From contig CAJINV010000010.1 in the NCBI GenBank assembly GCA_905178155.1, positions 663,902 through 727,901 of the forward strand: 64,000 nucleotides of DNA. The letters are read 5' to 3'. The notes under the pieces are model-generated. The model ran no database searches. It was not told the DNA's origin and worked only from the letters and a program-made list of their open reading frames with translations. Shown here one piece after another: positions 3,964-60,438 of the stretch. The DNA comes from Amoebophrya sp. A120. Its lineage: Eukaryota > Protista > Dinoflagellata. The position numbers and the translations under genes were made by a program. The stretch's first letter is position 1, and every line of letters starts with the position of its first letter.

Positions 3964-5256
3964 TCAAAATAGCCCACCGAACCAGGTCCCGTCATCGGAC
4001 CCCTCCGGCTGCTCGTTTGGATTCACCCCCTGTTTCTTCACAGCCACGCTCCCACTATTGGGCTTGCTTTCCAGCTCCATTCCTATCTCCCCCTCGATCT
4101 CATCTATGAGACTTTCAGCCTTGCTTTCCCGGGCTCGCTCCCTCATCGCGAAGAACGAACTACCTCGCAATGGCGGGATCTTGGCGTGCCCCTGCTTCCC
4201 AATCGCGCCGGTGTGGAAGCTTTGCATTTGTTGAGCTGAGATATTAGCAGCAGTCGAGGCGGTAGTGGACGACGGCGGTCTCCTGTTCATCGCGTTAGAG
4301 TTTGTTCCTCGTCTACGTATCAACTGTAAAAATGTCTGGGTCTGGAAGAATCCAACTTGTCATGCTGATTTTGGATTCTAAAAAAATCTGTATTGCATGA
4401 GCAGCAAAGAGAGTCCAGGTTTTGCTACACGGAAAGAGCATTTGTCATGCGGTGTAGGCATCAGGAAGGCCTCACAAAATCTGTGATGCTAGGGCATGCA
4501 TCACAGCCATCAGGAGTCATGCAAAATGTGCATGACAAACCTCGCAATCTTCCAGACCCAGACATTTTTACATTTGATACTACGGCTATTTCTATCAGTG
4601 CTCCGTCTACTCTTCCGCCCAATCGCCACGCCCAAGGACTCTTCGGCTAGTTTCAGGCTGCTGCGGGCTTTCGCGAAATCCCTTTCGTAGTCGATAATAT
4701 CTTCTTCGGAAGATGAAATCTGCTTTGTCAGTTTGGCGCGGTCGTTTTGCAGTTGTTCCTGCTGCTGGTGGTACACTAGGGCAGAAGTATCTTTACCCTT
4801 ACTACCCAAGAAACCACGGTCCTCGTCTCCGCGAATGGAAGATGATCTTCTGTTAATCGATATCGACCCGCCGTTCAGACTATACCCACCTACTGAGCTG
4901 CGAAACGGCCCGCGGCCGCTGTTGTCTTTCCTCTTTCCCTTGGAACTAGCAGTGGTGGCTTTAGGTGACTTTTTCTTCCTTTCTTGTTCTCCTGTCGCCT
5001 CACTAGGTCTATCTTGCAGGTACTTTTCGACATTTTCGTATCTTTCTGGAAACAACACTCTATGCGTTTTCCGAATCACCGACGCAGCTGGGTGGGGGTG
5101 GAGGTCTTCTAAGTTATTTTCGTGAATATCGTAATTTTTATCCCGGTCGTCGTGGAGTAGAGTGGAGGCTTTGGAGACGGAGGGGGAATTCGATTTCGCC
5201 CGCGCTTTCTCGTTTTCCTTCTCTTTATCCATGTAATCCCTTATTTCATCCAGCAT
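3964..5256 (-). CDS. Hypothetical charged/coiled-coil protein (ends uncertain, further exons likely)
   Basis: ORFs 4510..5256 and 3964..4323 join in frame (DRNSR|RRGTNSN) after removing 4318-4579. Confidence 0.55.
4318..4579. mobile_element. Introner family A
   Basis: TATCAACTG...CATTTGATA; TSD CTACG/CTACG. Confidence 0.95.
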
Positions 5257-5868: not shown

Positions 5869-6323
5869 CCAATATGGAGCTGTGCCGACTGTTTTCAGAG
5901 TCTGAAAGTAACACACCATGAGATTCACGGCGGTGCTACCCGCGTGACCCGAAGCTTTTTCTGCGTCCCAATGTAGCCGGCTAGCATAAAAAAGAATAAC
6001 TGCAGAGCCGGATATGCTGGAGACAGTAGGTCTTTTAGTACGCATGCCCAGAGAGAACTCCCATGCGGAGATAGATCTCGTACTGTTACAGAGAGCAAAA
6101 ATTGAATTCAAAGAGAATTGTCCCTTGCTTTGGATACTCGCTTGCATATGAAGGAAAAAACGCAAGCGAATTCGAGAGGCGAGAGTTCGGATTCTTTTTG
6201 AGCGATTGGAGATCCCAAGGGTATGAGAAAGAGACTCGTCTCGCGGAAACCGCAAGACGAATCCCAAGAAAACCACGTGGGGTACTATGATGCTCGGTTT
6301 TAGAACCTCTAGGTAGAGATTTT

Positions 6324-7695
6324 TCATGCGGAACTGCAAAGAAAGATAGGATCTGTCATGCAGAAAACAACAAATGCAATACCATTTCCCCAGATGTCGT
6401 CTGCGTCCATTACAGCTGGTGTGAAATTGTCCGGCGGACAGGTAAAATCCTTTCCACATTCAGGACAGGAAACCCGCTGCCACGGATTACCGGAAACCTG
6501 GATAAGAGTTTGGTCTTGATTTTGACTTGCCTCATGCAGTTCGACATTAAGGAAACCATTTTTCATGAGGCAAGACGCAATACAGGTTTCTTCCTTGTCA
6601 GATAGCGGTACTGAATTATTGGCTTTCTCCTCACTTTGCAATGAATCAGAAATCGTTCGTCAAATTTTGCTTCATCATTCTTGCTAACACGAGCAGAGAT
6701 GTAAGTAATGATCGCTCCTCTTTACTGCCATGTTAAGTGGCTTCTGCAATACAGATTCCCCTAAAATATTTCTGTCAGATAGCGGTACTGAATCTGGATT
6801 TCTCCTCACTTTGCAATGAATCAGAAATCGTTCGTCAAATTTTGCTTCATCATTGTTTCATTCTCTCTTGCAGCTCTCCGCAAGAGATGCGCTTTTTGTC
6901 ATGCGCAGTACAGCTGAAAACAGCTAAATACCAGTGACAACATCTTGTAGGACCCACCAATTACACCGGTGTTTTACCAAAGTGCCGGACGTGCTCAGAC
7001 CACAGAAAAATCGAGGTCTTCGCCCATCCGAAGGCAGAGATCCAAGCTATTTTAGAATCGCCGAAACGAGGATGCAGATACGGTTAATTTCTGACGAAAG
7101 AACCTGCAACCTAGCTGAGGGATTCGAATTTCGTGCAGGATCATCCCCATGACAAGATTTTTTTGTCATGGGAGAAAGCACATCACAGATTTCTATGGCT
7201 ATGTCACAACATTCTCAGCATTAGCATGGACAATATTCTGCGTATCCATCATGAGTTTGTGTTGGACTCAGACGGAGGCATTCGAAGTTTCTCATCAGGA
7301 TGTTGTTGGACTAAGTACTACCGCTTCTCGAAAAATCTGTATTGCAAATGGACTCCGATTTCGGATCGTGAACAGTTTCAATTTCGTGAATTTTAAGAAC
7401 GTTTGCCAAGCATGATCACACACATCTATAATACCGGCGCTCCGCATTTTGGGCAGTTGGTATCAACCGGGTACCGGCCCGCTAACTTGGCACAGCATAT
7501 TCTCACCTTCTCGGCACAAACGGAATACCAGGGTCGTTCCGGTGTCACCCCCGCCGTGACCGCGGCGATATCCGGGTCGTTTGCGGCACCAGTGGTCCTC
7601 ACGTCGAGAAAAGAAGAAGCAGCGCTGCGAAGATCTGTGAGAACGGAAGGAGATTGGGCGGGAGTGTTCGACCGAACGTCCTTCTCTTCAGCCAT
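6324..7695 (-). CDS. Cys-rich, possible zinc-ribbon hypothetical protein (exon structure and 3' end uncertain)
   Basis: ORF 7426..7695 (CPKCG) continues GSLPSDGRRPRFFCG...HRCNWW after removing 7048-7433; second CPEC in ORF 6324..6641. Confidence 0.35.
7048..7433. mobile_element. Putative degenerate introner (singleton)
   Basis: TATTTTAGA / TCTATAATA short IR; TSD CAAGC/CCGGC (3/5); internal CATGACAAG..TTGTCATG motifs. Confidence 0.5.
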
Positions 7696-8827: not shown

Positions 8828-10665
8828 TTAGTCCTTCTTGACGCGTCCGTAGAACTTGCGCTTCTCCTCGTAGGTCTGGAAGCGGCCGTGTCCGATCTTG
8901 GAGGAAGTGTCGATGAACTTCAGGGTGATCTCTTCCAGGGCGGCGCGCTTGGTCTGCGGGAGCAGGGACTGACGCAGGGTGACGCAGCGCTTCTTGGTTC
9001 CGGCGACGGAGCCCTTGATCATCAGCCAGTCCTCCTTGATCTCACCGTAGTGCGGGAACCCACCGAGCGGGGTGATGTTCTTGTCGGTCAGATCGTGGGT
9101 CGTGTTCGCGTCGTGCTCGTCCTCCTGTTGGGATTTGTAGTGCGGGAAGGGGGATGAGAAGAAAGATGTTGTGATATAATTATCCATGGACAAACACATT
9201 CCGAGTTGTACGATTACGTCAATTTTGCAAACAGAAGTAAAACCGTAACCGATATAATAGTTCTCGAAGTAGTTCTCATGCTAGTATTAAAACAGCAAAA
9301 GATCGAAACACACAGTCTCCCGTGCAAGAAGAAGCGAATCAAAAAATAAGATTCTTTACCTTGTTTCCGATGCGGTAGATCTTCTTGTTGATTTCGGTTC
9401 GGTGGTGGTAGCCGTTCTGACCCGCACGCGGGACCTGGAACTGCACGCGGGCCGGGTGCCAGGCACCGATACAGGCGACCTTGCGGAGACCACGGTGGGT
9501 CTTGCGGGGGAGGCGGGTGACGCCCCAACGGGTGACGACGCCGTCGATACCGCGACCCTTGGTCACGCCGATGATGTCGATCATCTCGTCCTTCTTGAAG
9601 ACGTCCGAGACACGCACCTCCTTCTCGAACAGACCCTTAGCGAAGTCGACCTGTGGGTAGGAGAAACGCAATTTGTAATGCGAAAACAACATGAGAAAGT
9701 AAGAAAAAGGCGACTCTCTGTAGAAAACTACCGACATGCTGGTGGTTGAACTAGGACAACTACATGATCATAAATGACTCTTCACATTACGACGCCCTCT
9801 CCTACTCCTACGTCATCTTTTCTATGCCAAAATCCTATAACAGTGTTTGTTTATACCTTGGCAGAGATGTCGGAGCCACCGTTGATCTGGATCTCCTTCA
9901 AGTGCGCCTTCTTCTGGCCAAGCTTGCACTTGTCGACCTGGGTGTGGCACAACAGACGGATGGTCTTGCAGTACTTCTTGGCGCGGTCGATCTGGGCGTC
10001 CATCTCGTTGGCCTCGAACTTCTTCTGGTAGTGGGAGAACGCCTTCTTCTTGGACTTGTACCTGTTTTTTGACAAAAGTATAAGCAATCACGCATGAGGA
10101 GAGGAAAAATAAAAATCGTTGTCAAGTCTGCATGAGATGAAACTCCTACTCAAAGTTTACTGTCAACCTCGCTGTAAAAAGAGCGTCAGCATAATCTTGC
10201 TTTGAGATGACTACATGAGGAGAGCCTCTAGTAGTCCGGTTTATCTACTTAAATCGCAACATCACAAGTTCATCATCTTCCTGTGATAGAAAAATTATAC
10301 CAGTTCTTGTAGAAGCGACGCTTCAAGTTGTCGGCCAAGTGGGCGGCGAAGACGGTGGTCAGTGCGCGCGGACCACGCGGGGTCTCCACGTATCCGACGA
10401 AACCAACGGCGACCATCGGCGGGGCCTCCAGGATGGTGACCGGCTCCACGACGTCCTTCTTGTCGACCTTGGAACCCGGGCGGGCGACGGTGCGCACAAT
10501 GTGGGTCATGCCAGCCTTGAAGGCCATAAAAGCAGTTAAATGGCAGGCCTTGGAAGCGTCGTCCTTCGGGAAGGACTTGATCTTGCCGTAATGGTGCTTG
10601 GTGCGCTTCTTCGGGAGGAAACCCAAGTTTCCGTGGCGCGGGCACTCGAACTTACGATGCGACAT
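8828..10665 (-). CDS. RPL3: 60S ribosomal protein L3 (uL3); exons 10301-10665, 9857-10061, 9360-9650, 8828-9124
   Basis: [53 protein letters not shown]; three canonical GT-AG introns; strong GC3 bias. Confidence 0.98.
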
Positions 10666-11652: not shown

Positions 11653-14600
11653 CTATTTCCTGGTCATGTGCAGGTCAAACCAGTCGCTCCCCTTCAATAT
11701 CTCCCGCATCCAGTCTATGTCAAACAGCAGCTCGTCCCGCGTCCGCCACCTTGTCCCGAACTTTGCATCCACCGCTAATTCCCCAAACAACCCCGCGCCA
11801 CAGGGTTCATCTCGGTACAAGCAGATTTTCGGCGCGTAGATGTACTGCCGCGCAATTTTGAACCTGTTGTAGCCCAACGCTTCCGCCGTGGGAAATACCG
11901 ACCGCGCGAACGCCCGCATGCTGTCTATCTCAATCGAGATGTACTTCGGCGGGTCTATTCTAGCGTACACCGGCGGCAAATTGTCCCGTGGCTGCACTTT
12001 CCTCACGTAAAACCCGCCTTGCGTCTCCTCGTAAAGGGAAAACTTGTTGATGTCCCCAATCTTCTTGTTGTTCTCGTACCAGAGGTTCGTTTTGTACTTG
12101 AACAGTTCTTCCTGTTTTTGCTTTCTCTCCGCCTCTGATAATTTACCTCTATCTTCCTCCGCTGTTTCACTTGCAGAAGTTGTTCCTCCACCCCGCGCGG
12201 CCAATTCCGCGGAGAATTCGTTGTGCGCCCTACTATTCCCGCCGAACAACAATTTGGGGTCGTTTTCGTCGATATATTTCCCGTCCGCCCGTAGTTCCCG
12301 ACTGCTGGATATGCCTTGCACATGTGTCTGTGTCTGGAAACTTGTGACGAGACGCAAGGAACTGCTAAGCATGACAAGTTTTTTGCATGGTCCTGAGTCG
12401 CGTATTCCGCATGAGAAACTGCGTTTTTGCACGACAGGGAGCAGGAGCTCTTCGCGGCCACGCAATACAGAGTGCAGAGTCATGCCAGACTAGCATGACA
12501 AATCTCGGAATCTCCCAGACCCAGACATATTTGCAGTTGATACTTGATAAAACGGCCCGGGATTTTTCCACCCAAATTCCGTCGGTTAGGATCGACCTCA
12601 GGCAGTCCTTGCTGTTCTCCTCCACGTCGATTTTCAGGAAATACGGCATGCCGAACTGCTTCACCAAGCTCGCGCAGGACAAGCTCGGAATCCACTGCGA
12701 TTTTATCCGGACGTTCCGTCGATGCTGCGTCGTGCCGTCGGAAACGAACATCGTCCGCCAAAACATCTCGTCGTTATTCACCAATTTGCTCGTCTCCGCC
12801 CGGGGGGAGAGTTGCACGAACGTGCTATTCCGGTACAGATCCTCTATTGAAAGGAAAAATCCCCCCTCCCCGTATTGAAAAGGTATGACTTCGAAAATTT
12901 GCGTTGCTGATTTGAGGTCACAAATCATATTTGTCTTGCAAGAAGACAAGGGCAGGAACTTTCGCCCCATTATGGAAGCGATTTGTCATGCTCCTGGGTC
13001 TAAAGGGGAGCCGTTTGCCATGCTGAACAACTAGACACATACGCCCCTATCTAGCCTGGAGATCTGCCCGCAATGCGTCTCTGCAATACAAAGCTGATTT
13101 GTGTACGCAAATCAGCAACAGAAATTTCCATTTTGATATGGGGAGGGGGGGTTTTTCATAGTGATATCCTCCGCTTTTTCTTCAGAGACAATGGCGTAGT
13201 TCAGTAAAATCAATTGCCCGGTGGACAATTCTTTTTCAAACTGCTGCCGGGCACGGAATATGCATTGCAAAAGTGGTATCGCACTCGTATAAGTGCATTA
13301 CAAATTTCCTTAGCATGAGAGATAACATTTGTCATGCGGATTCATCTTAAGAAAGAAATTTGCAATGCATTACTGCAATACTTTTACACAGGATACGGAA
13401 AATGCTATTCGGATTCGACTCGACGGTGACGACGTGGAAGCCGGAGTGCAGGTAGAACATGGTGTCTGCGCCGAGGCTATGCATTGCAAATTTTATGTCT
13501 GGGTCTGATCCAACTTTCGCATGACACCGCAGGTTTAGAATGCGAGTCTTGGCATCACAAGCTTCGCGTAGGGGTAGGCTCCTCAAAACTGCCAATCCTG
13601 CATGAGAAATGTCACCTTCAAGAGGTAACCCGAAAAATCGAGTGACTTTATTTGCTACTCATACAATGCAGATCTTCATCTTTGTGTCAACGAGACCTAG
13701 CATTACAGACTTGGACTCTTCGGCCAGATCAAAGTAGACAGATTTGCGATGCATAGAGGCCCATACCAACGTCTAAGATGAGGTAATCGTGCTTTTCCTT
13801 CAAATCTTTATCCGGGGAAAGACACCCATTCCCATCCATTTTTTGTATCACAAATACTGGAGCTTATGCATGTTCTGAATGACAAATTGGATGGGGATGG
13901 GTGTTTTTTCTTGAATAATCTTCGGCGGATTCTTCCAACTGGAGATCGGCATCTTGCTGGCCTTCTTCCTCGTCCTCTTGGTCTACTGCATCAGATGTTG
14001 ATGAAGCGCTCTTTGAAGAAGTAGAAGATGCTGCACCGGTGGCAGCAGCAGAGCCTGCTGCGCTGCCCTTCTGACGGTCTATCATTCCTGCAGGTATCGA
14101 GGTGTCGGTCTCGGTCTCGCTGTGTTCAGAAGTTGTAGGAATTGCGTCGTCGCAGAAATCATACAGAGCTTCCTCATCTTCACTCCCCTTTTCGTCAGTT
14201 TGCTCTTCCCGCACCAGAAATTCCGTCTCTTCCGCAAACACCTCGGAAAACCGTACCGCGTCCTTCACGTGGAAAACGAGTTTTTCCATGTTCCAAAACG
14301 CGGAGCGCTTCGTTTGCTTCACCCAGTTGCCCAGCCAAATGGAACTGTCAAAGTCAAAGTGCATGACGTGGGCAAGTTTGTCGTAGATCCCGTTAATCGG
14401 AACGGCGTACAGAGGCTCGAGTATGTTCAAACTCTGGTCTACCGGATACACTAAGTTCGGGTTTGTTTTCAAAGTTGCCTTTCTATTTCTCGTGTTCGCT
14501 TTCTTGGTTTGGTAGAGACCCACCTCCCTAGAAGAGGATCTCGATGCAACGGACGAGGATGCCTTAGCAATTGCACTTTTTCCGGCTCTACTACCTTTGA

Positions 14601-17600
14601 AAACTTTATCGTCGGCACTGCTGCCACGACTGTCCCTTATTCTCTTCCTACAGCTTGCAATTTTATTGCTTTCGACTCTCGTAGTTCCCTTCCCTTTTCC
14701 TTTTCTTCCGTCGCGATCGCTATCTTTTGTGCCTTTATTTCTCCTCTTTTTCCGCCACTTCTTCTTTTGCTTTTTTCCTTTTTCTGTATCTCTGCTATGA
14801 AAATCGCCGAAATCGATTCCCTTCTTCGCGACCATCTCTTCCGGCGGTCCGTTCGTGCCAGGTATCACCGCCCACAAAATGAACCCGGTAATGGACAAAT
14901 ACCGGTAGCCGAGCTGGAAAAAGTTCTGCATCAAACTTACCGGAAATAACATCTGCTTCGGGTCCCGGAGGGTTGTTTCCGCGATTGCCGTACTGCCGTC
15001 GGGTTCGTCTTCGTCTTCGTCAGAAGAAGTTGATGCTGCAATGGTTTTCGCGTTGCTGATTCCAGCGTGAAGGTCAATGTCAGTTTTCCTCTTTTTCCTC
15101 TCCGCCTCTATCTCCTGCTTCAGTCGCAGTCTCTTCAACTCCAGCTGCCCCTTGATCTTCATATTTGCGATGGAATGGACAAAATGCGTCTTCACGTCGG
15201 GTGTTGAAGCTGTATCGCTGGATTCTGGTTCTTCGGAACCTCCATCGTCAGAAGCCGCTTGCTCTACCACCCCACTGTCGCTGTTTCCGTCGTGTTCCAC
15301 CTCCATTTCTACCAGGCCAGCACCCGCTCCCTCCGTGTCGTTCTTTACCCCGAACAGCGTCATGCTGCCGTCGCCACTGAAAAATTGCGACTTCGTGTGC
15401 TCTATCAAATGTAAAAATGTCTGGGTCTGGAAGAGTGTAGACTTGTCATGCAGATTTGCCATGACCCATGAGGTCTGGAATGCGGGACTTAGCATGACAG
15501 ACTCTGCGAGGCCTCTGCCATGCCTATTCTGCATGAGAAACTTCGTCCCAACTTGATCAAAAGTGGGCAGCTTTTGGCACTCATGCAACACAGACTTTTG
15601 CATGCTTCAGATTTACCATGACAGGTTGCAATCTTCCAGACCCAGACATTTTTGCAATTCATATGCTCCGTGATACTCTGCCCCCGGTCGTCCACGGCGA
15701 GTCGTTGTCTGCCGCGCCCTATGAAGTGCAAATATGTCTGGGACTGGAAGAATCATGCAACTTGTGATGCTTGTCTCACATGCCTTTTGAATCTTTAATG
15801 CGCGGACAGGAATAAAGCCTCTTTCCTGTCATGCAAAAACGCGGCTTGCCATGCGGATAGCGAAACACAAAGGACCCCATAAACTTGTCATGCGTGGCTG
15901 CGTATTGCAGTGCGCTGACCATTCACACAGTAGCATCACAAGTTTTCGGACCCAGGAGGAGACATAATCTGCAATGCATACGCCCGAATTCCCCGAGGTT
16001 TTCCACGTAGTACTTCCCGTAGGAGAAGTATCCTAAAGAAAAAAGTGGTACAGATAAACACTCTGACGGAAGGCAAGCAAGACAGACAACCTCTGTCATG
16101 CAGGAAACGCTTGACAGCCGCATTTCATTTGTGTTTTCCCTTATAGTCTGCGCATCACAGGTTTTCTTTGCCATGTCGAGCAACTTTGTGATGCAGAAAC
16201 TCCAACACGTGTGTTGTAACTGTATTAACACTTTTATTTTCCTGTGATAAAAAGAGGTTTAGCATGCCAGCTCTCAGCCCGGAGAGCTGGATGTACCCGG
16301 CGAAGGATCTGGATGAGATCACGAGGAACATCCTATTACCACGAAAAATGCCCCCAACCCAGAACTTGGCGGCATTTATATTTTGCGAACCTTTTCAATG
16401 GAAACGCTCCCCGTCTTGCATGTATCAGCATCAAAAATCTTGCATGCTAGAAAGCTCAAATCTGTGCAGCTGCAAAGGAGCCCAACAGCAGCCGGATCTG
16501 TTATGCAAAAGATGCCTTGCGCGTCTAGATTCTGCATCAGAAAGGCTCGTAGTCCTTTCATGCAACACAAAAAGCTTTCATCTGGAAACTTTGCATGAGA
16601 AACTTTTGCAAGTTCCGGGGTGGAGGCATTTTTCATTGTCATGCATCCGGTAGAGAAGCTGCTGGGGAGTTACTTTGAAGAAGGAAAAAAAGTCCGTGTT
16701 GAAACGGTAGGGAGTGGCCCTTTCGAAGGAGGAAAATGAGTGGTCTAGATCTACTTCGGAGGGATGTACTGAAGACGAAGTGGTAGTAGTTGCACTTGTT
16801 CTGTTCAGAGCCAGCAGTTCGTTCCACGCGGGGTGTTTCGAAAACTCGCTCATCACATCGATGTCCTCTTGCACGCAGCACGGCCAAGCCGCCACTTCCT
16901 GGTTATCGGAAGGGCGTTTCGGAACGGTGCCGGAGTTGAGCAGCTTCGGGTACAGTTTTTTTTGGACCGTGCTTCGTTTGGAGAGAGAAGAAGTGACGGG
17001 AGCTGCAGTATCATCTGGATCATTGCTTTTGCTATCCCCCGGTGTAACAACTGTTGATCGCGGCACTAGCATTCCCGCGCGACAGATTTTCAAGACGTCG
17101 AAGACCATCCGGACTGCTTGCGGAATGATCGGCATCAGGGCAGATTCTGTGGTGGAGACGAACGCGGATAGAATCAACGCGGAGAAGCAGAGTCTGCTTA
17201 TAACCCGCTCAAACGTTACCATCTCAAACGTTACAATAGAATCTGGAAATCTGTGATGCAAGAACTGCATGACCTAGCCTGCTCCCATAGGATCATTGCG
17301 CATGACAAGTTTCGGAGTCCCAAACCGCGCTAGAATCTGGCGAAATTTGTATTGCGAAAAGCTCAGTCCTCTATACGGTCCTCATGCTCTTCATGCAATA
17401 CAAAATCCAGACTCTATTGTAACGTTTGAGATTGTAACGTTTGAGCAGGTCAGACTATTCTGCACGTTTTTCTGGATTTCCTTCTCCCCATACCGGTTCA
17501 ACACGACCTCCAACGACGCTAGACTCTGCCACTCCCGCCAGTCCGGAAAGAAATGCACCCAGTGGGCGAGGATGTACTGGGATTTCTCGTACAACTTCGT

Positions 17601-17987: not shown

Positions 17988-18503
17988 GGTGGCGATTTGT
18001 GGTATTGAAGATGGCCACGTGTTTGTTCTGTCTAAAAGTCCTAGCGACTGAACTCCATTTTACGGACGAGAAACAACACGAGCAACGTACCTACACACTG
18101 CCGCTCGCTACTGCCCGATCAGAATTGCAGTTGTACCAGACTCGAAGAAGATAACTAGCACTTTATACTTTTACGAATTTTTCCGGGGAGTGATCCCGAC
18201 TTGCCGCTCTTGCTGGGCGTAGGCAGGAAACACAGAATACCATTGGGAAAACAACGAACCCTCTCTGTGGTTCCCGAGGCGGAGAGGCCTACAAAAGCCT
18301 TTGATGCATGGACTCATCAACGCGATTTTGTGATTCGAAGTCAATGTAGGTGAAATGTAAACATTTGGTTAGCGTGACGAAAAAAGAAGCCAATTGGAAA
18401 TGGTAATTTTCGAAAAAGAAGACAAGTAAACAGCTACAGATAGTGTATGTGCAAAGAATAAAGGAAGAGCTATCATGATGCTCGAATAAAGAGAAGGCTA
18501 TAA

Positions 18504-19713
18504 TATGGGATCGTTTCAACGATTAAAATTAAAAAAATTAATTTTTATTTATTCAAGAGGTCATACAAAATGAAAATCATCAGAGTGCGACATGGAAACT
18601 GCCGTCGTCGCGGGCCTCCGAGGTGAACGTCTCCGGATTGTGTTTTGTTTATGGTAATGAAATAGCTAGACACGTCCCAACTTCAGCTAGTTAAAATGGT
18701 ATGTAGTTGAACAAGGTTTAAGAATGCAAAGGAAGCAGGAAGCTTGGCTCCGTCTTTGCGGCCCACAAGCTGGGCGTCTGCGTGGTCCCTCGCTCTCCGG
18801 CTCGTCTGGGGCCCCGTCACGTAGCAGCGACGCTATGCTGGTTTCGACCGGTGGAGTTTATGGGGCAATGTGATGGCTTTCGAATACATCCCAAGAGGAA
18901 GCTGGTGCGGCAAAGCCTGAAAATGTGTGGCGTTGTAGTATTGAGATCTCGCACCTCAACGGACGGAGCAACTTTCGTGGTTTTGGTCATCAGTTTCAGA
19001 GTGGGAGTTCCTGAGTTCCTTTTAGAGCTGGAGGATCGCGATTAATTAGACGCCCAGAGACGTCCAAGAAGACGTCTATTTTCCGCGATATGGAAATGGA
19101 TTGACTAAGTGGGAATAGCCAAAGTTAATGACGTCCCTGGGGACGTCTCTGGGAGACGTCCCGCAAGCTCATTTTTGGCATCAAAATGAGGCGCGTCAAA
19201 AGTTGACGCTTTTCCTTACGAAAAAGCTACTCTTTAGGATGCTTTTGCCCAACATATCCGCAGCGTCGCCTCCTCCACCGTTCTGCTCGCGATACTCCTG
19301 CAGGGCCTCACTGGGCTCCGTGTCGGTTGGCGTCGCCTTCTCCGGGCCCAAGATATCGGCCAGCAGCTCTTCTCTGCGCGCGTGGATCCCCCCCATGTAT
19401 TTCCGGCGTCCGGAGGGGGCGCGGAGGAGGGCCCGGATCGCCCTGGCGACGTTCTCCATACCAAGGCGCTTGGTATTAGAACTGCTACTGCCGCGATGAC
19501 AGACTCCAGCTTCCATATCATTTCAACTAGCTTAAGTTGGGACGTGTCTAGTTATTTCATTACCATGAACAAAACACAAGCCGGAGATGTTCACCTGGGA
19601 GGCCCGCGACGGCGGCAGTTCCCGCATCACCTTCTGATGATTTTCATTTTATATAACCCCTTGAATTGCAAAAAATTAATTTTTTTTATTTTAATCGTTG
19701 AAACGATCCCATA
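18504..19713. mobile_element. Intergenic 1210-bp TIR DNA element, probably non-autonomous, with introner-type ends
   Basis: ~200-bp imperfect TIRs TATGGGATCGTTTCAACG...CGTTGAAACGATCCCATA; perfect TSD TATAA at 18499-18503 and 19714-19718; internal ORF 19196..19516 not recognised. Confidence 0.9.
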
Positions 19714-20043
19714 TATAATAGCGTCGGTTACTGTGAGTGAGTGTCAGTTTACAAAGTAAGCTGTGACCGAGTCTGCAACTTGTAGAAATAGAAATTGCTC
19801 GGCGGTCGGGTCAGCAAGTAATTACTGCATGCAGACCCGCGCGTGCGTGTGCAAAATTCGAACTGGTACAACAAAAGCGAAATTAGAGAGGAAGGATTAG
19901 GAATAGGATCATGAGTATAAGTACGTGACACAAAAAAAGAAATGCGAGAAGTCGTATTTTCAAAGAGGCAAATCATTTTGGAGGATGTGGTGGCTCGTTC
20001 GCTGTTTATCACTCCTGTTTGAAATCTTCTGTGGTTCTCGTCT

Positions 20044-23000
20044 TCACTCGTCTGGCGTTTCACCCGTCCCAGCAAGCTTAGGCGATAAACCCGTGTCAAC
20101 CCCAGCAGTTGCAGCAGGAACAGGCATTTCACCAGTACCAGCGGAAACAGATTCGTCCGCCCTGTGGCATTCTTCCGCCTGTACTCCGTTGTAGGAAAAC
20201 GTCACGCGCTGCTTCAGCGCGTCGGAGAGCTGCGTGAACAGCTGCTCGTCGATGGCATTCTCCGTGTCTTCCGTGGCGGTTTGCACCTGCCCCAGGTCGA
20301 ACTGCATCCGCAGTTGATTCCACGCTTTCAGGTTTGCTTTCCCGAAAATTCGGACCAGATTCTCCCACATTTTGTTTCCCGAGGCTTCGTTGAACACGTC
20401 ACATTTCAGCGCCGTCAAAACCGGTTTCGCGATCAGTTCCGCGACTTTGTTGTGAACTTGCTCCGCAGTCTGAGGTGTTTCCGCAGCGCTGGATTCCGAC
20501 TCGACCCCGTCCAGCGCCTTTCGCTCGATTTCCGGCCAGGTTTCGAAGAAGTCGGCGTAATGCAAGAGGACCGGCTGCTTCTCCGGTTTGCGCATCTTGC
20601 CAAGGAGGCGCAAGAATCCGCCCTTGGGCCCCAGGTTTGGCGCATGGTCCACCCATCCTTTGGCGGCCAAGAACCCGTCGAAACCCTTTTCGGGGTCGGG
20701 GGTTGCAGTTAGTGCCGTCGCCTCCGCTTCAGGAAAGAAAACCTGGTTTTGCGGCTCCAAGCTGGCAAAGGCCCAACCGACGTCAAAGCGACGCATGTAC
20801 ATTTCGCCCGACTCCGATTTGAAGAACCCGATGTTGCCGAAGTGGCCATCCGTATGCATTGCAAATATGCCTTGGTCTGTGACGCAAGGAAGGGAATCAA
20901 TACTTGTGAGCACGCTGTAATGCGCTGCCGAGCATGACAAATTTTTCCGTGGCTCTGCTTCTGACTTGCCGCGTACTCCGCATGAGAAACTGCGTTTTTG
21001 CATGACAGGCAAGAGGAGCTCTTCGCGGCCACCCAATAGATCCAGAGTCCAGAGTCATGCCAGACTAGCATAACAAATCGAAATCTCGCACCAATCTCGG
21101 AGACCCAGATATATTTGCATTTGATAATCCGGGTCGGAAAGCAACACGGTCAGAAACAGATCCAGCCCAAGTTGGTGGATCTGCTGATGGCTTGCTTCAA
21201 AGCTCTGGAAATTCTTCCGCGCCCACCAGGCACTTCCGAAAGTGATTCGCCCGCTGCCGATTTTGCTCAGGAGTTGGACGACACCCGTGTGTCCGACGGC
21301 GGGCGTGCCAGGCGACATCAAGCCCTTTTCCCTTTATCAACCAGGGCAAAGGGAGTTTTGGCAAAACGCATGCGGCAAACAAGGCAACTACCCTTCAATT
21401 TGGGAACAGTGTCAGTGACCGTCATCAACAGTCGCGTGCACAACAGACGGCTGGCACAAAAATTACGAGTTCTTGTGTGAATGAAAACATGTTTGGATGA
21501 GACTCATTACCAGTACCAGCTCTCTCCGCGTTTGCTTATAGCAGGGCTTCTGCTACAAAATTGAAATCGTCATTGCGACAAGCACTACTGGGCTAGTGTG
21601 CCTGATTGCAATAAACCAAAACACTTGGAACATCGTTCCATACAAGGACGGCATCGCTCCACGGCTGGTTTCCCCAATCAAAATTCAGGAATTCCCGCAT
21701 GCCCCCCTTGTCCAGCTCGTGCCAAGACAGCGTCATCGACTGCCCATCCCCTGAGGACATGTCGGCCGCGTAGTCCCCGAAGAAAATCGAAGCGGTGAAA
21801 AGAGCCCCTGCATCGGTTTTGACCACGATCGTCGTTCCGCCGATGCTGCGACAGTTCACGTAATCATCACAGTACGGCAGAGCACCGGGTGGGGTCGGTT
21901 TAGGACCGTGGTAAATCTGCTTCGTCACAGCCCGAAAAATGCTTCCTGCGACCAGCTCCGACATCGCGTCGGCGACGTTTTTTTCGCGTTTTTCCTTCTC
22001 CTTCGGCTTTTCGTCCTCCTTCCCTATCACATCAATGGGCTTGAAAACGGCTTTCTGGCCGGCCCGAAGACGCAGGGGCTCGCCACTGAAGTCTAACGTC
22101 TGCAAGTCGGTTGCAGCTTCAGATTGACCTTTTTTTTCAAGCTGGTAAACTTGAGCTTCGTGTCCACCGGAGCCGGGCTTTTCCAGCCTCTTCCAAGACC
22201 AGACGACCCTCGGCTGAGGATTCTTCACGTCCAGCACCTTGATTGCAAGTATCAAGATGTAATCTAGGGGAGTGTTGCGAAATGCGCGAGCACGATTTCC
22301 TGGCTCACATTGATTGAATACGCAAAAATGGTCTCTGCAAAGGCAAAACGATGACACTCACAGGTCTCATGTTTTGCGGACATAAGGCTTTGGAAGACGC
22401 AGGCCTTTAGAACAAGGTATGCACCATGTGGGTTTGTTGCATAGCTGGATAAGCAGAACAAACTATAACTAGAATTTCCTAAGCATGCATGCATTTCCTA
22501 CGCCTAGAAAATCTCTCGTCGCACAACACTTCTATTTGTCTATCCGATTCTTTCCACTCGATAGTCTCCGGAAACCGTTCGGCCGTGGTCTGTCCCATTT
22601 CGGTTTGCGGATCGGAAGGAACATCGGTTTGCGGATCGGAAGGAACAATGTTGTCCGTCTCCTCACCCTCAAGGACGAGTCCTTTAGCGTCCAGCTGTTT
22701 CTTATACCATTCCAGGAATTGCTTTGAAGCATGTGTTGGCAGCTCGAAACCGAGACCAGGAAATACAACGCCACCATTGCCTTCCGAATTTCCCCCGTGG
22801 TCCACTTCCACCAAAGCGGTAGAACTTGTTGCGGTCGAATCCCATTCCTCCTCCCCGTCCGACGAATGTACTTCCCCTTCCGAACTCGCAGCCGCCTCTC
22901 CGCTCCCAACAGCACCAGTTGCCGGGAATCCCCCAGGACCCTCGTCCCCCAGCGGAGCCAGAAAGCGGGTGTTTTTCTTGCTGGGAGGTTTCGGAGAGGG

Positions 23001-23679
23001 TTCTTCCGTCGTAGCTCGCTGCAACTCCGGCTCCGCTGCTTCCGGGTCAAGGATGAAAAGTATCACGGAGAAAAAGAAAGGAAGAGCGAGCTTAGTATGA
23101 GTGTGGAATTCAATTGCTATGTGGATTTGGAATTCTTCAGGAAAAAAAAGGCTAGTTTTCAGGCTTGCTAGTAGGTACTCCTCTAGAGTAGACTACGACC
23201 AAGGCGAGAAATAAATCCATCACGACATGCAAACACACTCAAGAGGGCCAGCTCAATTTTATCTTTTCCGTGTGATACCTCGCACGGCCTGGACACGAGT
23301 GGTGCCGCCAAGAGCCAAAAGTCCAAATCCGATCGCGTGGGAGCGTATCAACTGTAAAAATGTCTGGGTCTGGAAGATTGCCAGGTTTGTCATGCATATT
23401 TTGAATGACCCACGACGTCTGTGATGCATGCCCTAGCATCACAGATTTTTAGAGCACTTTGAGATGCCTCTACCGCATGAGAAATGCCCTCTCCACGTAG
23501 CACAAACTGGAGTCCTTTTGCTGGTCATGAAATACAAATTTTTTTAGAATCCACAGTCAGCATTACAAGTTTAGAATCTTCCAGACCCAGACATTTTTAC
23601 ATTTGATAGAGCGAAAAAGCTGCGTGCGGCTCCGGTTGCTCGCCGCGATCGCGAAGGTAGCGGTTGATGATGTTGCCAT
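20044..23679 (-). CDS. Atypical PI3K/PI4K/HipA-like kinase-fold protein with signal-peptide-like N-terminus; 2 introners plus probable canonical introns
   Basis: AVFKP, SELVAGSIFRAV, DPDGHFGNIGF (rebuilt across 20853-21126) and RRFDVGWAF; N-terminus ...HAIGFGLLALGGTTRVQA. Confidence 0.6.
20853..21126. mobile_element. Introner family A-like, inside kinase catalytic loop
   Basis: TSD ATCCG/ATCCG; related to 12310-12542. Confidence 0.93.
23346..23608. mobile_element. Introner family A, inverted relative to 4318-4579
   Basis: TSD GAGCG/GAGCG. Confidence 0.95.
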
Positions 23680-24859
23680 GTTTGCGCTTTCGTGTCGTTT
23701 ACGTTTTTAGTCTACTTCCTTAGTCGTGAATTTGAGAGTTTATGATAATTTCCGGCGCTGTGCAGAGCTCTTTTTCACTTGATGTAAAACTAAAAGGAAA
23801 CGGTAGTGATAAGTTCGTGCAAAACAAATTTTGGTTTTAGTGTTTTTGTCAGAATGCTGTTTCGTCTGTGGAATAATTAGGCTAGAGAACTGTGGCGCAT
23901 GGAAAGGGATTTCAAAACTGAAGTCTAGACGGCCGTCTTCCAGATCCTCTCAAAGAGTCATCAACACGAGGACGAGACTATAACTACGGAACCGAAGTTA
24001 CGACGTGGCTATGGCATTATAGCACGTGATACTATAGAATCACAACCGAAACACTGCAATCAATCGTCGCAACAGACACTACATACTTTACCTCCGAGGT
24101 TTGTAGTCCTTCATCTGTGTGAGGAAAGAAAGGACGTATAGGCAGCAACCGATATTTTTCGTAATATCAGCACGCGAACAGGAGAAGTTACAACAACCGA
24201 CTAGTAGACTCAGCAAGCCGATGAAACTGGTAGGAAATATAAGCAGATCATTGCGGACCGATCCTGTCGTCAAAGAGCCTTGTGATTCTGTACCCGACAG
24301 GGAAAGTTTGTTTTTCTATTGGCTAAAGGCGGGTAAAACATCAAGCAACAAACAGCTTAACCTCCTCTTCTTTTTGCAGAAGTCCGAAGTGACGCACAGA
24401 ACTAAATGCACAATTGCCCTTCGTGCGGTACTTGTCATGGAAAAGATAAGGAAAAGCGGTCTACAACTTGTGCAGGAAAATAAAACCTGGACGAAACTAC
24501 TGCACCAGCTGCACGAGTTTGCAATCATTATCGCACGACCTAAAACTTCTACCGTAGTAGTTTTTCTTCCGTTATTTTTTCCGATTCGGTCACCGTGCCG
24601 CCGCTTCAGCCCCGGCCCGCGCTAATGCTGCTGGAAAACTGATTTTCAGTCTGTTTATAGATTCTTCACCGAGGAAATTCATGGCAAAAGGCGCGTTGCC
24701 TTTAGCTTTAGTTGTCCTTTTGTTCATCGCATAATAAATAGATACAAGAGCATGCAACTCTTACCCATTGCAGCCCTCTCTACTACTTACTTCTCTGTCA
24801 TGACGTCAAAAACGTTGTGGATGCTTATTCGAGGAGTTCGACGAAAATGATGATCGACG

Positions 24860-27316
24860 CACAGTTTACGAGTCGATACATAAACTGCAAAGGACTTTGT
24901 GATGTCGGCTGCCTGCTGCTGGTACTCGGCCGCCTTTTTCTGCATCTGCTTCTCGTGCGCAGTCAGGTTCTCGCCGTATCAAAGGGAGATAGTAAACTTC
25001 TGCCTGCTTCTTGCACTTCGTCAACTACAGAGCTGCCAGCATATCATGACTTACGATTTATCTCACGAGTGAATTATATCATGCTTTGCGAAAAACAAAC
25101 CTTGTGGAAGCAGGAATCAATGGAAGCTGCAAAAGTTAAAGTACAAAGTTTTCTTATGTAATGCAAAAGCATCGTACTAGTAGTAATCGCATTACAAATT
25201 TGCTCAGCATGACAAATGGAATTTCTCATGCTGATTTACCTTGAAAAAAAGATTTGTCATGCACAAATGCGATTACTACGAGTACGATACTTTTGCACAG
25301 GATATTTCTCCAGACGATACGAAGATCAACCAGTTCCCGCCTGTGATCCACGGTTTCTGTTTTTCGATCTATCCTGAGTGAAAACGCCCCCACCCCATAG
25401 TGAAGATGGGCAATCTGCTACACAAATCAACCAGCATTGGCTGTTGCGCACGACAAGTTTGGCCCCGCAGTGTCATCCTGTTTAGCTAGTTATAGTAGCA
25501 TTACAGATCTAGCATATTATGCTGATTGGAGCATCACAAGTTCCAAACCACGACTAGAAAATGCTTCTCATGTTGGGGCTCTGCATGAGAAGCATTTTGA
25601 GCATGCAGATCTGCATGACGACTATAGGGTTGGAACGTTTTTACTCAGGATACGATCCCGATCGCCTTCGCCGCTACCTCGTACTCCTGTCCGCTATGGA
25701 TGTGTCAGGATCGAAATCGTCAAAATTGAACAAATAGTTTGTCATGCATAAAACCGATACCAGTCGGAAGCCCACTTATCAGGCGGCGCATGACAAATTT
25801 TCCGAGCATCGGAATCCAATTTGTCATGCTGTTCGAGCACAGAAGACTGCTTTTGTCATGCTAGTTTAGTAGCTCCATTTCAAACCCTAAACAGGCCAAC
25901 AATCGGCCTCACTTGCCATCCCGGCAAGACAGGCACTTCATGCCTTGCATTTTGTGCATCGCAAACTATTTCAACTTTGACGATTTCAATCCTGACGCTT
26001 CCATATCCGCGCTCCCGGTAGTACGCCGCCTGCAGCTCCGCTGTGACCAGATCGGCGTGAAAGGGCTCTATCTTCTTTCCAATCTCCTCTTCCGCCGACA
26101 TATCTCCCGCAGTGGACCCATTTTTCGCATATGAACTGCAAAAGTTAAAGTATCGTACTAGTATAAATTGCATTACAAATTAGCGCAGCATTACGAATTG
26201 AATTTGTAATGCTGATTTTCGTTGAGAACGAAATTTGTAATGCATAAATGCAATAATTACTACGAGTACGATGCTTCAGCATTGCATATCGCACTCCGCG
26301 CGGCGATTTTCTTCTCCGCGGCGGCGCGAATCGCGGCCAGAGCTTCCTGCGCCCCCGCAGCCGCACTTTCCGTGATTTTTACGTTGATGTCGCTCAGCGT
26401 TTTTTCGTATCCTGTGTAAAAACGTCCCCACCACAGAGTTGTGATGCAAATGCGCAATGACAGGAGCATCTGTAATGCGCATACCCATGAGAGGCATTTC
26501 CAATCGAGTTTTGGCATTTGTGATGCTGTAAACAGCATGAGAAAGTGGTTTTATCACGCGGATTCCCTTGCTAACCAGCACAACGCTGCAGAGGAAAACT
26601 TATCATGCACAACTCCCAAAATTTGCAGATTTACCGACTTGACTATGGGGTGGGGACGTTTTTGCTCACCATATTTCGTACTCCGTCACCAGCGCCCGGG
26701 CCTTAGCCGCTGCCTTGGCGGCAGCTGCTTTCGCCTCCGCGCTTTCCTTTGCTACAGCGAGGGATCAAAATGAAAAGTCCCCCCTCCCCATATCGAACTG
26801 GAAATCTGTGATGCAGGATCTGTGTACACAAATCGGATTTGTCTTGCGGTAGAGGACTGCAGACAGATGCAAAGCCCGGAACGGGGTGGCTTGGGGTAGG
26901 TACTTAGCATGGCAGACGTCTGCCCTAGTAGCGTAGCAGCATTACAAACCGCCTGCGAAATGCAGCGGAAGCCCTGGCTTTGCTCTCTTGCAAGACAGAA
27001 TCGATTCGTGAGCACAAATCAGCATCACAAATTTTGAAAAGCACGCCTTTTCGATATGGGGAGGGGGGATTTTTCCTCACAATACGAGGTTTTTGGTCAC
27101 CAGTTCCACGATCTGTTTCGCTTTTGCCTTGGCATTGCCGTTGTCTGCTGCGGTGGAGGAAATAGACGAGAAAAGTGACAAAGCCGAGGACGTCGGGAGG
27201 TTTGAAAGGTAGAAAAACCAAATCGCAAAATATCTGCAGACGATGGAGTGGATAAGAGGCGCGGCGGACGGTCTGCCACGCCGCTGCGCTACGTCGACAG
27301 TATTTCGTCCGGACAT
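24860..27316 (-). CDS. Ala-rich coiled-coil hypothetical protein; 6 introners (ends approximate)
   Basis: Spliced frame ..VTKNL|AVAKESAEAKAAAAK..EYE|KTLSDIN..ARSA|KNGST..YYRERG|QEYEVAAKAIGI|EKQ.. Confidence 0.6.
25155..25304. mobile_element. Introner family B
   Basis: TSD TTTCT/TTTCT. Confidence 0.93.
25370..25652. mobile_element. Introner family D (GAGTAAAAACGTCCCCACCCC TIR core)
   Basis: TSD CGATC/CGATC. Confidence 0.93.
25695..26005. mobile_element. Introner family G (GTGTCAGGATCGAAAT TIR core)
   Basis: TSD TCCGC/TCCGC. Confidence 0.93.
26130..26288. mobile_element. Introner family B
   Basis: TSD TCGCA/TCGCA. Confidence 0.93.
26408..26673. mobile_element. Introner family D
   Basis: TSD TTTCG/TTTCG. 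Confidence 0.93.
26763..27084. mobile_element. Introner family C
   Basis: TSD CGAGG/CGAGG; left end GAT. Confidence 0.92.
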
Positions 27317-28483
27317 TTTGCTAGTTTCGCCAGGGCCTCACGCGGCCCCAGCTTGGGAGACGTCGAAGGCACTATGTCTATGGACAACAAGTTAAGAACA
27401 TGCGAATTACCTTGTCCGTGTAGCACCAAAATTTTTCTCTTAGGTCAGGATAGTAGCTTGGATCAGGATAATACCGCTGCCTTCTCGTAGTTCGCTCGGC
27501 TTGCGCTTGTGTATTTTTTTTCCAGTTGCTTCATTCACAAGCATCTGTCCTCTCCGTCGCTTCAGAATGATAAACAGGACGAAGAAATGCGCATTCCCTC
27601 TTAGGTCCCAGTCCCATCATGGATACTAGCAACACACTCGTCAAAAATAATGTAGCAGTAACTGACACTACTTTTTAATTATTTACCAGCTACAGTGGAA
27701 GAGCATTCACTTTCCTTCCTCGAAGTCTTCTCTGCCCCCGCTGGGCTAGCATGACGCAAATACGCCACAATTGACCGGCAATGAACACGTAATAGCTCTA
27801 CGTAAACGTATTTACATTTCCGGCTTCGCATTAGAAGCTGCAAGTGAAACGAGAAAAGGAGCATTAAACCCAACGCGACCATTTTTCGCAACGTAACAGC
27901 CTTCTTACAGTTTCAGGGTCGGGGTTTTTTATTCGGCTTTCTTGTTTTAGGGGAAAGAAGAACTTTTGCACCATTTTTACATCCATGAAGTAGATGTAGA
28001 TGTTGTTCTAACTAGAGCATTCATTGGCGTCAAAATTTGTCTGTGCTCTAGCTGCCGTGGTCAGTGAACAAGGGTGGGGGGAACCGCGTCTAATTGAGGT
28101 CAAAAATGATACAAGAAAAGATGTTCTTGAGAAGCACATGGGGATGAAGGGGGTCTGCTAGTAGGGGTCTGCTAGTGGGGGTCTGGTAGTTCTGGTAGTG
28201 GTTAGGCTCAGGGTTTTGTTTTGCTAACAAAAGTAAAGATGATATGAAAGGCCGTTAGAAAGATTGATAAGATCATGCAACATTTCGCTTAGGACTTTGA
28301 CATGCCTCAAAATTGAAGCATGCCTGCGGTGATTCAGAGAAGATCAAGATCGATTGATTGATAGATACAGCCATGTAAGTAAAAAATTTGTGTAAACAAA
28401 AAAGCTAGCCTACTGCTACTACCGTCGTTTTCCTGCTAGAATAAACATCCGATTTTTTTTTTTCGCTGCTGCTCATTCGGAAC

Positions 28484-31400: not shown

Positions 31401-31579
31401 CTCAGGATATGCAGCGACGAAGCTTTAACATTTTCTGCGGTGGACAGAGCCACATTTTTCCGCGCTGGTTGGGCAGCATTCCGCGCTGCAGGTTTCTTCA
31501 AAACCTTGAACGCTAGTGCCGGTGCTGGCCCACGATCAGCCCCTCCTACGTAGAGGATTTGTAACAGGAACCGCTTCAT
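28484..31579 (-). CDS. GH16 beta-1,3-glucanase (laminarinase-like) paralog 1, ~599 aa; 4 introners
   Basis: SWPAYW, WPESGEFDMMEH (ExDxxE), TTLHT, INTAFCGSWAG; 1800 nt after element removal. Confidence 0.88.
29307..29816. mobile_element. Long degenerate introner (510 bp, singleton)
   Basis: TATC...TTGAAAAG / CTTTTCAA...GATA; TSD TGGGC/TGATC; removal gives EMITTLH as in paralogs. Confidence 0.8.
30472..30727. mobile_element. Introner family H (GTGCACAAC TIR core)
   Basis: TSD ACGCT/ACGCG; related to 57636-57857. Confidence 0.85.
30809..31029. mobile_element. Introner family E
   Basis: TSD GCTCC/GCTCC. Confidence 0.93.
31121..31409. mobile_element. Introner family D
   Basis: TSD TGCAG/TGCAG. 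Confidence 0.95.
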
Positions 31580-32712
31580 TTTTTTCCTGACCGCCGTTTT
31601 TTTGTGTGTGAAGAACAACTGACTTTTCGATGCGTTTTTCTGTTGTGTAAAAGACAGACTTTTACTCAGAGGTCGTCGTGTTCTCGTCTTTTCAGAAGAT
31701 ATCCCAGATTGTTATATGAATCGTTTGCTCGGCGCGCATATGTACTTATTAACTATTCGGGGAGAACTTTCGGCGGGCACAGAAGATCCACGACTCGAGT
31801 GGTTGTCGGCAAAGCTGAGGAACTGTTGCTTGGAGTTTTCATCGGGAAAACGAACAAGTGAAAAAATAAATACCTACGTATAGTACATAGGAATATCTAA
31901 ACACCAAAGAGCGGAAATAGCCTGTTATGCCTTTACGGGGATTTCGGTTTTCCATCCCCATCGTGTTTTGCACGAAGATTTGGCGAGTCACAATTAAAAC
32001 AGCCACGAGAGGTGGAGCGATTGGACGAAGCCTACGGCAAAGGAAGAGACCTGCATTCAAATCTTGAACGACAACGATTTTGGTTGACGAATAACGATTT
32101 GCTGGACGGCCTGCCGGTGCAGCTGCAGGTGCAGGTTTCATTTCCCTACAAAAAATTTCTTCGCAAACGAGGAAAAGCGATCTTCCACCGGCGCAACGGC
32201 GCCAGCATGTACGAGGGAACGAGGGTAATGAAATCACGATATGAAACGACCTACTTCACTGCAATACAGCCTTGTATCGAAATAAATGCGAAGGTAAAGA
32301 AAAACGAAATAACAACAAAGTGGAGAATACTTCGGAAGACACAGGTCGGTGTTCCTGTAGCGCCCGGAAAATTTATTAAAAAATTTCTTGGATGTTGTTG
32401 ATTTTTTCGTCGGCTACCAGATCAAGAACAAGCTTGGTTCTGTTAACTTCTTCTATACCAGTGCTAATAATTATTGCATCAGCTCCCTTCGCAAACAGGA
32501 ATACATGAAGCGAACGAGCTATTGAAAAAGACTGCTTGTTGGGGGAATAGGGATTTTTTCTTTATTCACCCACGTCCTTTTCTGGCAGTAGCTGGCAGCG
32601 GTAGAAGAAAAACTACAGAAGAAGTATGCGGTGAGATGAACAAGGGCCAAACTAGCAGGTGGACGAGCTGCTCAAGTATCTTTATCGGCCCTTCAACAAC
32701 ACCTGTCTTCCC

Positions 32713-60091: not shown

Positions 60092-60438
60092 CCTGATGTG
60101 CACTAGAAGCGTGGTCAGGGTCACCAGCACAAAAGCTTAATATTTCCTGAAACGAAGTTCAAGTTTCCGACGGTAGAAGGGGTAGTCGTGAAAGAATGTC
60201 TTGTTGGGAGAACGAGCTTTTTAGAATAAAAATAGTCGTATTCGTTTAAACCTTTGTAAGAAGCCAAAGACGAAAGACCTGAGTTGCGGTTTGAATCAAA
60301 TACTCGTGCGTTTCGGGGAGATTTGTGTGAAAGAGGTTCTTGCAAGAACGCGTACGCACCTACGAACGACGAACAAATCACTGTGGACGACAAAGCACAC
60401 GAATCTTCTGGCGCACGCACCAACCAACGACGAACAAA

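Follow-up and report, generated by a model that had tools for sequence, protein, structure and literature searches.

Among the introns of the dinoflagellate Amoebophrya sp. A120, Farhat et al. (2021; PMC7789003) described introners, i.e., elements of 110–360 bp without GT-AG borders that are absent from probable transcripts, whose ends read TAT, seven variable bases and a run of A (TAT-N7-AAA) and whose boundaries carry direct repeats. In the text and one supplement of that genome paper neither a transposase nor U1 is found in A120. How the tens of thousands of non-canonical introns of this genome move and how they are removed is the wider question addressed here. The element class is therefore published, and subterminal repeats are a known kind of feature. 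We have analyzed a stretch of 64,000 bp of A120 (GenBank assembly GCA_905178155.1, contig CAJINV010000010.1, positions 663,902–727,901 of the forward strand), hereafter the window, in which a sequence-only reading had noticed an octamer repeated on both strands of introners with different terminal inverted repeats (TIRs). We find that the octamer is part of a longer word placed in phase with the DNA helix. On balance we think it probable that its copies are sites bound, as double-stranded DNA, by the transposase that copies the elements, likely an enzyme that cuts and pastes through hairpins on the flanks, as hAT enzymes do, and that they are likely not a signal for removal from RNA. All results cover the window and loci fetched from public contigs, and no figure is genome-wide.

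Introners of the window

An inverted-repeat search followed by manual curation (six of the 45 automatic candidates, false or mis-bounded, were dropped and 11 elements were added by hand) gave 50 elements in the window, of 109–358 bp, with TAT...ATA ends and a 5-bp target-site duplication. They are the published A120 introners, since a frame of the window (29302–28487) agrees at all of 272 residues (100% identity) with its sole database match, a protein annotated in A120, and their ends match the TAT-N7-AAA description (PMC7789003). The elements are non-autonomous. Their removal restores reading frames of up to 1,376 codons, and 13 of the 15 contig joints listed skip the element plus 5 bases. 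The skipping contigs come from two runs of one sample, X3 and X4, that we guess to be RNA; the raw RNA runs X9 and X10 gave only 5 and 7 reads. One example is a family-A introner of 262 bp (4318–4579, TAT...ATA) located in an exon of a minus-strand gene. Identical 5-bp duplications flank it at 4313–4317 and 4580–4584 on the plus strand, and its TIRs lie at 4318–4349 (plus) and 4548–4579 (minus), found as a 33-nt repeat at 97% in the inverted-repeat search. Record 14 of the X3 contigs joins 4312 to 4580, skipping the introner and 5 bases, and removal of the introner restores a frame of 349 codons.

The interiors form about 14–16 families, with alignment scores between families mostly of 20–35 against a maximum of 32 for shuffled sequences. 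The earlier description of the families as unrelated is thus right for most of the interior, which cannot be aligned, but not for the ends: the TAT-N7-AAA end is common to all, and families A and D merge at a lower threshold. Across families the end profile has A at positions 11–13 in 0.74–0.92 of cases (TAT was the detection condition of that set). Scanning of public metagenome contigs gave loci of a second assembly (L001–L148), in which the window families recur in copies up to 96% identical. By homology we obtained 464 copies, of which 444 remained after leaving out 20 with ambiguous ends; the 5-bp duplication was perfect in 335 of these and had one mismatch in 65. A 6-bp duplication was found in none of 353 elements, in a detection that favored 5 bp. 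Gene direction could be called for 223 of the 444 copies, 100 inserted in sense and 123 in antisense. The orientation independence that the motif had been said to fit is therefore real, but the palindromic ends account for it without any motif.

A common word inside the introners

The octamer TGTNATGC has 147 exact matches in the window, where 100 dinucleotide shuffles gave 7.51 ± 2.49 and never more than 16. Inside the 50 curated elements (12,701 bp) there are 140 of them, while six lie wholly outside (51,299 bp) and one straddles an element end. Not a single exact match fell in the reading frames, 24,003 bp in all, that reappear once each element is taken out together with one duplication. 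Both the enrichment and the scarcity in exons noted by eye are thus confirmed. The middle base, described as free, is not fully so: C, G and A are all used (TGTC 67, TGTG 45, TGTA 26), but T is avoided (TGTT 2, not enriched). Three one-mismatch variants are also enriched, TGTNTTGC (46), TCTNATGC (17) and TGCNATGC (21). The actual word, on either strand, is (AA)Y-TGT-V-W-TGC, with a length of 8–13 bp, and for calling sites we used a matrix of 13 positions, (AA)Y-TGT-V-W-TGC-D. The word may resemble a Sox-Oct composite site, an RBFOX word and an apicomplexan palindrome. A search of the window with Rfam gave no match.

The matrix called 239 sites in the elements of the window (18.8 per kb) and 34 in the 51 kb outside (0.66 per kb). 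At least two sites were present in 49 of the 50 elements, mostly 4–6 per element, and the spread across families claimed before has one exception, the element at 24977–25319, without a site of its own. In the loci L001–L148 a site was present in 353 of 354 elements, at 20.1 per kb (a set without four elements of more than 460 bp), and only one of the 444 homology-found copies had fewer than two. A scan of viral contigs gave two loci (L149 and L150) with background motif density, which we took as chance. The sites are scattered across the interior and not crowded at the tips, the outermost ones lying mostly about 35–60 nt from either end. The example introner carries six. The five octamers reported for it are exact, at 4358–4365, 4443–4450 (54 bp after the variant site named below) and 4482–4489 (39 bp) on the plus strand and at 4498–4505 (16 bp, about 1.5 turns) and 4530–4537 (32 bp) on the minus strand; a W variant recognized by the matrix, TGTATTGC, at 4389–4396 on the plus strand, 31 bp after the first site, had been overlooked.

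Helical phase of the sites

The commonest spacing between sites on the same strand was 31–33 bp, i.e., three turns of the helix, with 17 pairs against 2.1 expected, found in nine of 14 groups. The spacers within these doublets were not alike between families. With the doublets removed and held rigid, the best period between 8 and 22 bp was 10.4 bp (p = 0.003 in the band and 0.033 globally); at this period same-strand pairs are whole turns apart and opposite-strand pairs are offset by half a turn. The phasing statistic on 14 family consensuses, 0.457, was reached in none of 3000 jitters and in none of 600 runs of the global test; it survived every leave-one-out, and when the families were collapsed to eight super-groups p was at most 0.02. 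A plain repeat of 16–17 bp reached 0.273, a poorer fit than the 0.457 obtained with 10.4 bp and a shift of half a turn, and was rejected. The layouts of the sites vary among families yet keep the phase, which by helix geometry means that all sites face one side of B-DNA. The period and the half turn for inverted sites point to a protein that binds double-stranded DNA at several sites at once. Inherited indels between sites, mostly of +1 or −1, with one of −11 in 13 family-A copies and one of −4 in 13 family-C copies, gave no clean test of phase.

Conservation of the word and timing of selection

In eight window families the divergence was 0.099 for the core of the word, 0.348 for the spacers, 0.368 for the free middle base and 0.174 for the first 30 terminal bases. 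The core has therefore changed 3.5-fold more slowly than the adjacent spacers, a difference for which CpG does not account. The motif clearly does not mutate like its neighboring sequence, and slow core divergence and helical phasing together support the conserved two-strand protein-binding code that the sequence-only reading had suggested. The picture for single copies is different. Among the 444 copies, private changes at the invariant bases (230/8955 = 0.026) were near the 0.027 per copy implied by the mismatches in the duplications, and the ratio of observed to expected change was higher for short branches (0.53) than for long ones (0.13). Insertion scars, described below, numbered 259 and destroyed 29 sites, against 29.0 ± 5.0 expected. 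It looks as if single sites are unprotected after landing, and as if the lineages still being copied are those that retained their sites, although redundancy could hide a need for one or two of them. In the 223 copies with a called direction (all 35 of the calls in the window were correct) the site nearest the 3′ end had changed in 56 of 1456 cases and that nearest the 5′ end in 49 of 1461 (p = 0.49), and there was no effect of strand. Since sites appear to be lost neutrally after landing and the 3′-most one is not favored, selection seems to act at copying and not at splicing.

Probable excision scars

Private insertions inside the elements showed a marked preference for three nucleotides: 186 had this length, whereas lengths of 2, 4 and 6 nt accounted for 30, 32 and 45 cases. 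The +3 insertions occurred at about 2 per kb in the introner copies of the window and of L001–L148, and the +6 insertions were of the same build. They read XY-z-XY, in which z was complementary to a neighbor in 57 of the 60 cases that were informative (p = 7e-24). The context that a hairpin model forbids was found only once in 175. Scars per copy climbed with the number of mismatches in the duplication (0.50, 0.65 and 1.46). The complement in these +3 scars matches repair of flanks sealed as hairpins. Such flank hairpins and their footprints are described for hAT, Transib and MULE elements in the available part of PMC5499845. We infer a rule of duplication length minus two, which would assign +3 to duplications of 5 bp and +6 to those of 8 bp, an assignment that is not unique. 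Transib termini are CAC, unlike the TAT...ATA ends here. The TAT...ATA introners themselves are likely the source of the scars because they are abundant and nested insertions exist (25155 within 24977).

What may read the word

The reading that we consider probable is as follows. An autonomous partner, not seen here, would make a multimeric transposase acting in trans, which would hold several sites along the same helical face, much as subterminal repeats are gripped by hAT transposases. Only copies with intact, in-phase sites would be mobilized, by which one word would be kept while interiors diverge. The +3 scars inside the elements would be left by excision that passes through hairpins on the flanks, and in landed copies the sites would decay freely, splicing relying on the element ends. 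Two traits of hAT elements are present, the 5-bp duplication (as in hAT5) and subterminal repeats on either strand, and they make hAT a candidate superfamily and no more. The scars fit excision through flank hairpins and point to a likely cut-and-paste enzyme of hAT type, by a chemistry that Transib and MULE share. Among the partners proposed by the sequence-only reading the transposase is favored, an RNA splicing or excision factor is disfavored by the covariation, 3′-most site, strand and scar tests, and a chromatin protein stays among the candidates.

A number of observations weigh against a transposase. No transposase domain was found with Pfam in 129 open reading frames (ORFs) from the window and the fetched loci, a small sample of the genome: 30 ORFs of the window and 99 of the 176 long ORFs of fetched loci, where 97 of 105 selected were used, leaving out two viral-locus entries and a few others, and one from L018 was added. 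Farhat et al. likewise report none in A120 in the text consulted (PMC7789003), and a TA-ended A120 family with 5-bp duplications, fam38, is linked to an integrase-like ORF in the available part of Gozashti et al. (PMC12130899). Compared to the 4-bp repeats of Hermes, the word is longer (8–13 bp) and more uniform over families with different inner TIRs. Outside the recognized elements, in 421 kb of locus DNA after masking, high-threshold words were in tenfold excess (122 vs. 12), and of 21 such outside clusters inspected about half were further TAT families and several lacked ends. One of the latter is in the window at 6300–7400 (10 matrix sites vs. 0.69 in shuffles, no recognizable element ends) and may consist of decayed elements or reflect use of the motif outside elements. 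The three GT-AG introns of RPL3 on the minus strand (9125–9359, 9651–9856 and 10062–10300), in which the word had been thought scarce, contain indeed a single exact match but four weak matrix sites (9136, 9274, 9674 and 10259) vs. 0.3 in shuffles (0/1000, in a post hoc test). Relative to the element ends no significant phase was seen (p = 0.31), families E and n9 departed from the phase of the other consensuses, and for clusters without a member in the window the phasing reached only p = 0.11. In older copies change at the invariant bases ran at roughly half that of the spacers (0.010 vs. 0.021, P = 0.07), which leaves room for some protection after insertion. Lastly, the scars alone neither fix the duplication length nor establish these elements as their source.

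A DNA-binding or architectural protein of the host, such as a domesticated transposase domain, that bends or opens the element for several transposases would account for the data nearly as well, the word being then a host accessory code exploited by all families. We hold this to be unlikely, though several points favor it: one word is shared by families with different inner TIRs, its sites are spread through the interior and not crowded at the tips, it is in excess outside recognized elements, and the DNA-level results (phasing, neutrality of the scars and strand tests) fit it equally well. On the other hand, the 1.2-kb element of the window that has long TIRs contains no site (0), DNA flanking the genes has few (34 in 51 kb), the outside clusters that can be resolved are mostly more TAT elements, and the proposal comes without a candidate protein. 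At the other extreme, a neutral relic of one ancestral element, or a mutation bias without function, is hardly credible. The TAT-N7-AAA end in all families does make a deep common ancestry plausible, but such a relic would not have a core 3.5-fold slower than the adjacent spacers around a freely diverging middle base, nor layouts that vary by family and stay in phase, and CpG is no explanation of the rates.

There remain the explanations in which the word acts in RNA removal. The sites might direct removal of the element from the transcript. They could do so as a mark on the DNA that is read while transcription proceeds, or as a branch point usable in both directions, and redundancy would mask the losses. 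The core, T-N-A on both strands, reads as U-n-A-pyrimidine (UnAy) in RNA, which is why a two-way branch point was tested; the outermost sites lie at 35–60 nt from each end in most cases, weak sites are found in all three RPL3 introns, and fewer than two sites in only one of 444 copies. U1 is also reported missing in the text of PMC7789003. We nevertheless regard this as decidedly unlikely. The 3′-most site is no better kept than the 5′-most one and strand has no effect, the scars destroy sites at the neutral rate, and a period of 10.4 bp is a property of the DNA helix. The old element at 29307–29816 has one site in 510 bp and an annotated A120 protein joins across it, and two presumed GT-AG introns (27149–27410 and 24622–24879) have no site. 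Moreover, the base avoided at N is presumably the one that would pair best with a standard U2, judging from the branch consensus. A variant of the same idea, that opposed copies of the word pair and zip the intron RNA into a long hairpin joining the splice sites, is largely refuted and in our view very improbable. Predicted folds do pair core with core, with values of 0.4–0.8 in families A, B, C, H, M and N, but no covariation was found at the free position (observed minus expected −0.005 in 32 pairs and −0.010 in 8 pairs). The consensus of family E has all its sites on one strand (core with core 0.00–0.09), yet both of its orientations are skipped in contigs, and a hairpin is already closed by the TIRs.

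Introner copies and other features of the window

The remaining copies of family A have six sites each and lie at 1459–1726, 23346–23608, 34380–34650, 36082–36345, 57921–58186 and, in reverse orientation and skipped in contigs, 15403–15663. Family B has six sites at 12845–13166 and 26763–27084 (both skipped in contigs), 33845–34160 and 36798–37119, five at 52487–52807 and 58511–58838, four at 47305–47622 and two in a decayed copy (49119–49476). Family C has four at 1783–1932, 26130–26288 (skipped in contigs), 41677–41829 and the nested copy 25155–25304, five at 13259–13395 (skipped in contigs) and two at 50385–50515. Family D has seven at 15720–15980 (skipped in contigs) and 20853–21126, six at 37619–37870, four at 12310–12542 (skipped in contigs) and three at 47036–47252. 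The copies of family E are found at 25370–25652 (four sites, all minus, skipped in contigs), 36465–36743 (six, all minus), 31121–31409 (six, all plus), 50017–50331 (five) and, in the other orientation, 26408–26673 (five, four of them plus, skipped in contigs). Family F has four sites at 16029–16249, 30809–31029, 49514–49722, 54211–54419 and 57047–57256 and five at 55481–55689; the altered left end of the copy at 54211–54419 resembles the downstream exon and not TAT, as if overwritten by a longer duplication. Family G has five at 16334–16643, six at 35686–36006 and 58893–59208, and one in the old decayed copy of 510 bp (29307–29816), the removal of which restores a frame of 606 codons. Family H has six at 25695–26005 (skipped in contigs), five at 45689–45994 and four at 46663–46989. 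Families K (17199–17454, contig pieces abutting across it) and N (57636–57857), together with an N-related introner (30472–30727), have four each, and family M (53291–53496) has five. A single introner at 13478–13755 (five sites) and the shortest one, of 109 bp (13809–13917, two sites), are both skipped in contigs. The outer introner at 24977–25319, without motif sites, holds the nested family-C copy, and contigs skip both as one unit of 348 bases. A probable old TAT...ATA element at 32841–33168 has a duplication matching in four of five bases, one weak site and no similarity to the current families.

In all three RPL3 introns (9125–10300) a CTCAT that could be the branch point precedes the acceptor by about 30–45 nt, and the three show weak alignment to one and the same stretch of the family-E consensus. 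In the third one (10187–10275, minus strand) C-box-like and D-box-like words in sense orientation suggest an intronic box C/D small nucleolar RNA, for which Rfam gave none at the gathering threshold. The stretch 24622–24879 is likely a GT-AG intron in a 3′ untranslated region, spliced in the contig of one run and retained in that of another. At least four tandem paralogues of a PF26113-family protein occupy 28487–41360 and 56997–60136; the paralogue at 38952–41360 is without introner and its neighbors have 3–7, which shows gain after duplication, or loss. The 1.2-kb element with long inverted ends (18495–19722) has no relationship to the introners; a contig derived from a different copy of it joins 19951 to 21243. 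Several unrelated tandem repeat arrays, possibly subtelomeric, fill 61900–64000.

Significance

A common, helically phased site can serve as bait for isolating the missing protein, and the search for splicing signals moves to the element ends. The complement-bearing +3 scars indicate hairpin cut-and-paste, contrary to the published view that transposase mobilization is unlikely in A120. Were such a scar also to form in exons, loss of an intron from the DNA would add a single codon without shifting the frame, and such frame-preserving loss, if true, would be a candidate source of the fast divergence that has been reported for proteins of this parasite. A more speculative and rather improbable possibility is that a protein of the host, which might be a tamed transposase domain, recognizes the phased word on DNA as an orientation-free address of non-GT-AG introns for a spliceosome that lacks U1. 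By the same, equally doubtful, proposal the address would be redundant in each element and weakened in ordinary introns like those of RPL3, and the +3 scars would keep the frame at both gain and loss. An internal common word, its phasing and excision scars are not described in the text and one supplement of PMC7789003, whose figure-only supplements could show the word. In the part of the literature searched we met with no account of the word, of its phase on the helix, of its neutral fate once inserted or of the +3 scars; the helical phasing and the +3 scars appear to be new.

Comparison with known systems

The introners of the window agree with those of Farhat et al. in all the traits given above and differ in interpretation, as the text of that paper argues against general mobilization by a transposase in A120 (PMC7789003). 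Non-autonomous elements with internal repeats that are bound cooperatively, and in which more repeats lead to more excision, are described for Emigrant/Lemi1 (available part of PMC1636448) and Muta1 (available part of PMC5499845); the repeats of these miniature inverted-repeat and foldback elements are, however, family-specific or tandem, and the duplications have other lengths (8–9 bp in Muta1). The TA...TA termini of IS3EU/GingerRoot elements (available part of PMC10045372) are also found at the ends of the elements here, and the A120 family 38 labeled “Ginger” shares the 5-bp duplication and the TA/TA ends (available part of PMC12130899). IS3EU duplications are usually of 6 bp, in contrast to 5 bp here, and scars bearing a complement point to flank hairpins, which the sources consulted describe mainly for hAT, Transib and MULE elements. 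An element of 1,104 bp in L018 (505–1608), TAT...ATA with a perfect 5-bp duplication, four exact sites and GC-rich repeats, was the only long one checked; its longest frame gave no Pfam match.

Among the rows listed in PMC12130899, terminus matches to hAT5 and hAT6 are given for another A120 family. Duplications of 5 bp, as in these elements, are described for hAT5 (available part of PMC12730594). In hAT elements such as Hermes, Ac and Tol2 the subterminal repeats are bound by BED domains and their “exact phasing” is crucial (available part of PMC10368747). The likeness to the introners is in the many short repeats in two orientations inside the ends, the spacing-sensitive binding and the excision through flank hairpins, the last two putative here, from sequence. 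The difference is that in the introners the word fills the whole interior, is common to at least 14 families and follows a period of 10.4 bp, in elements that serve as introns.

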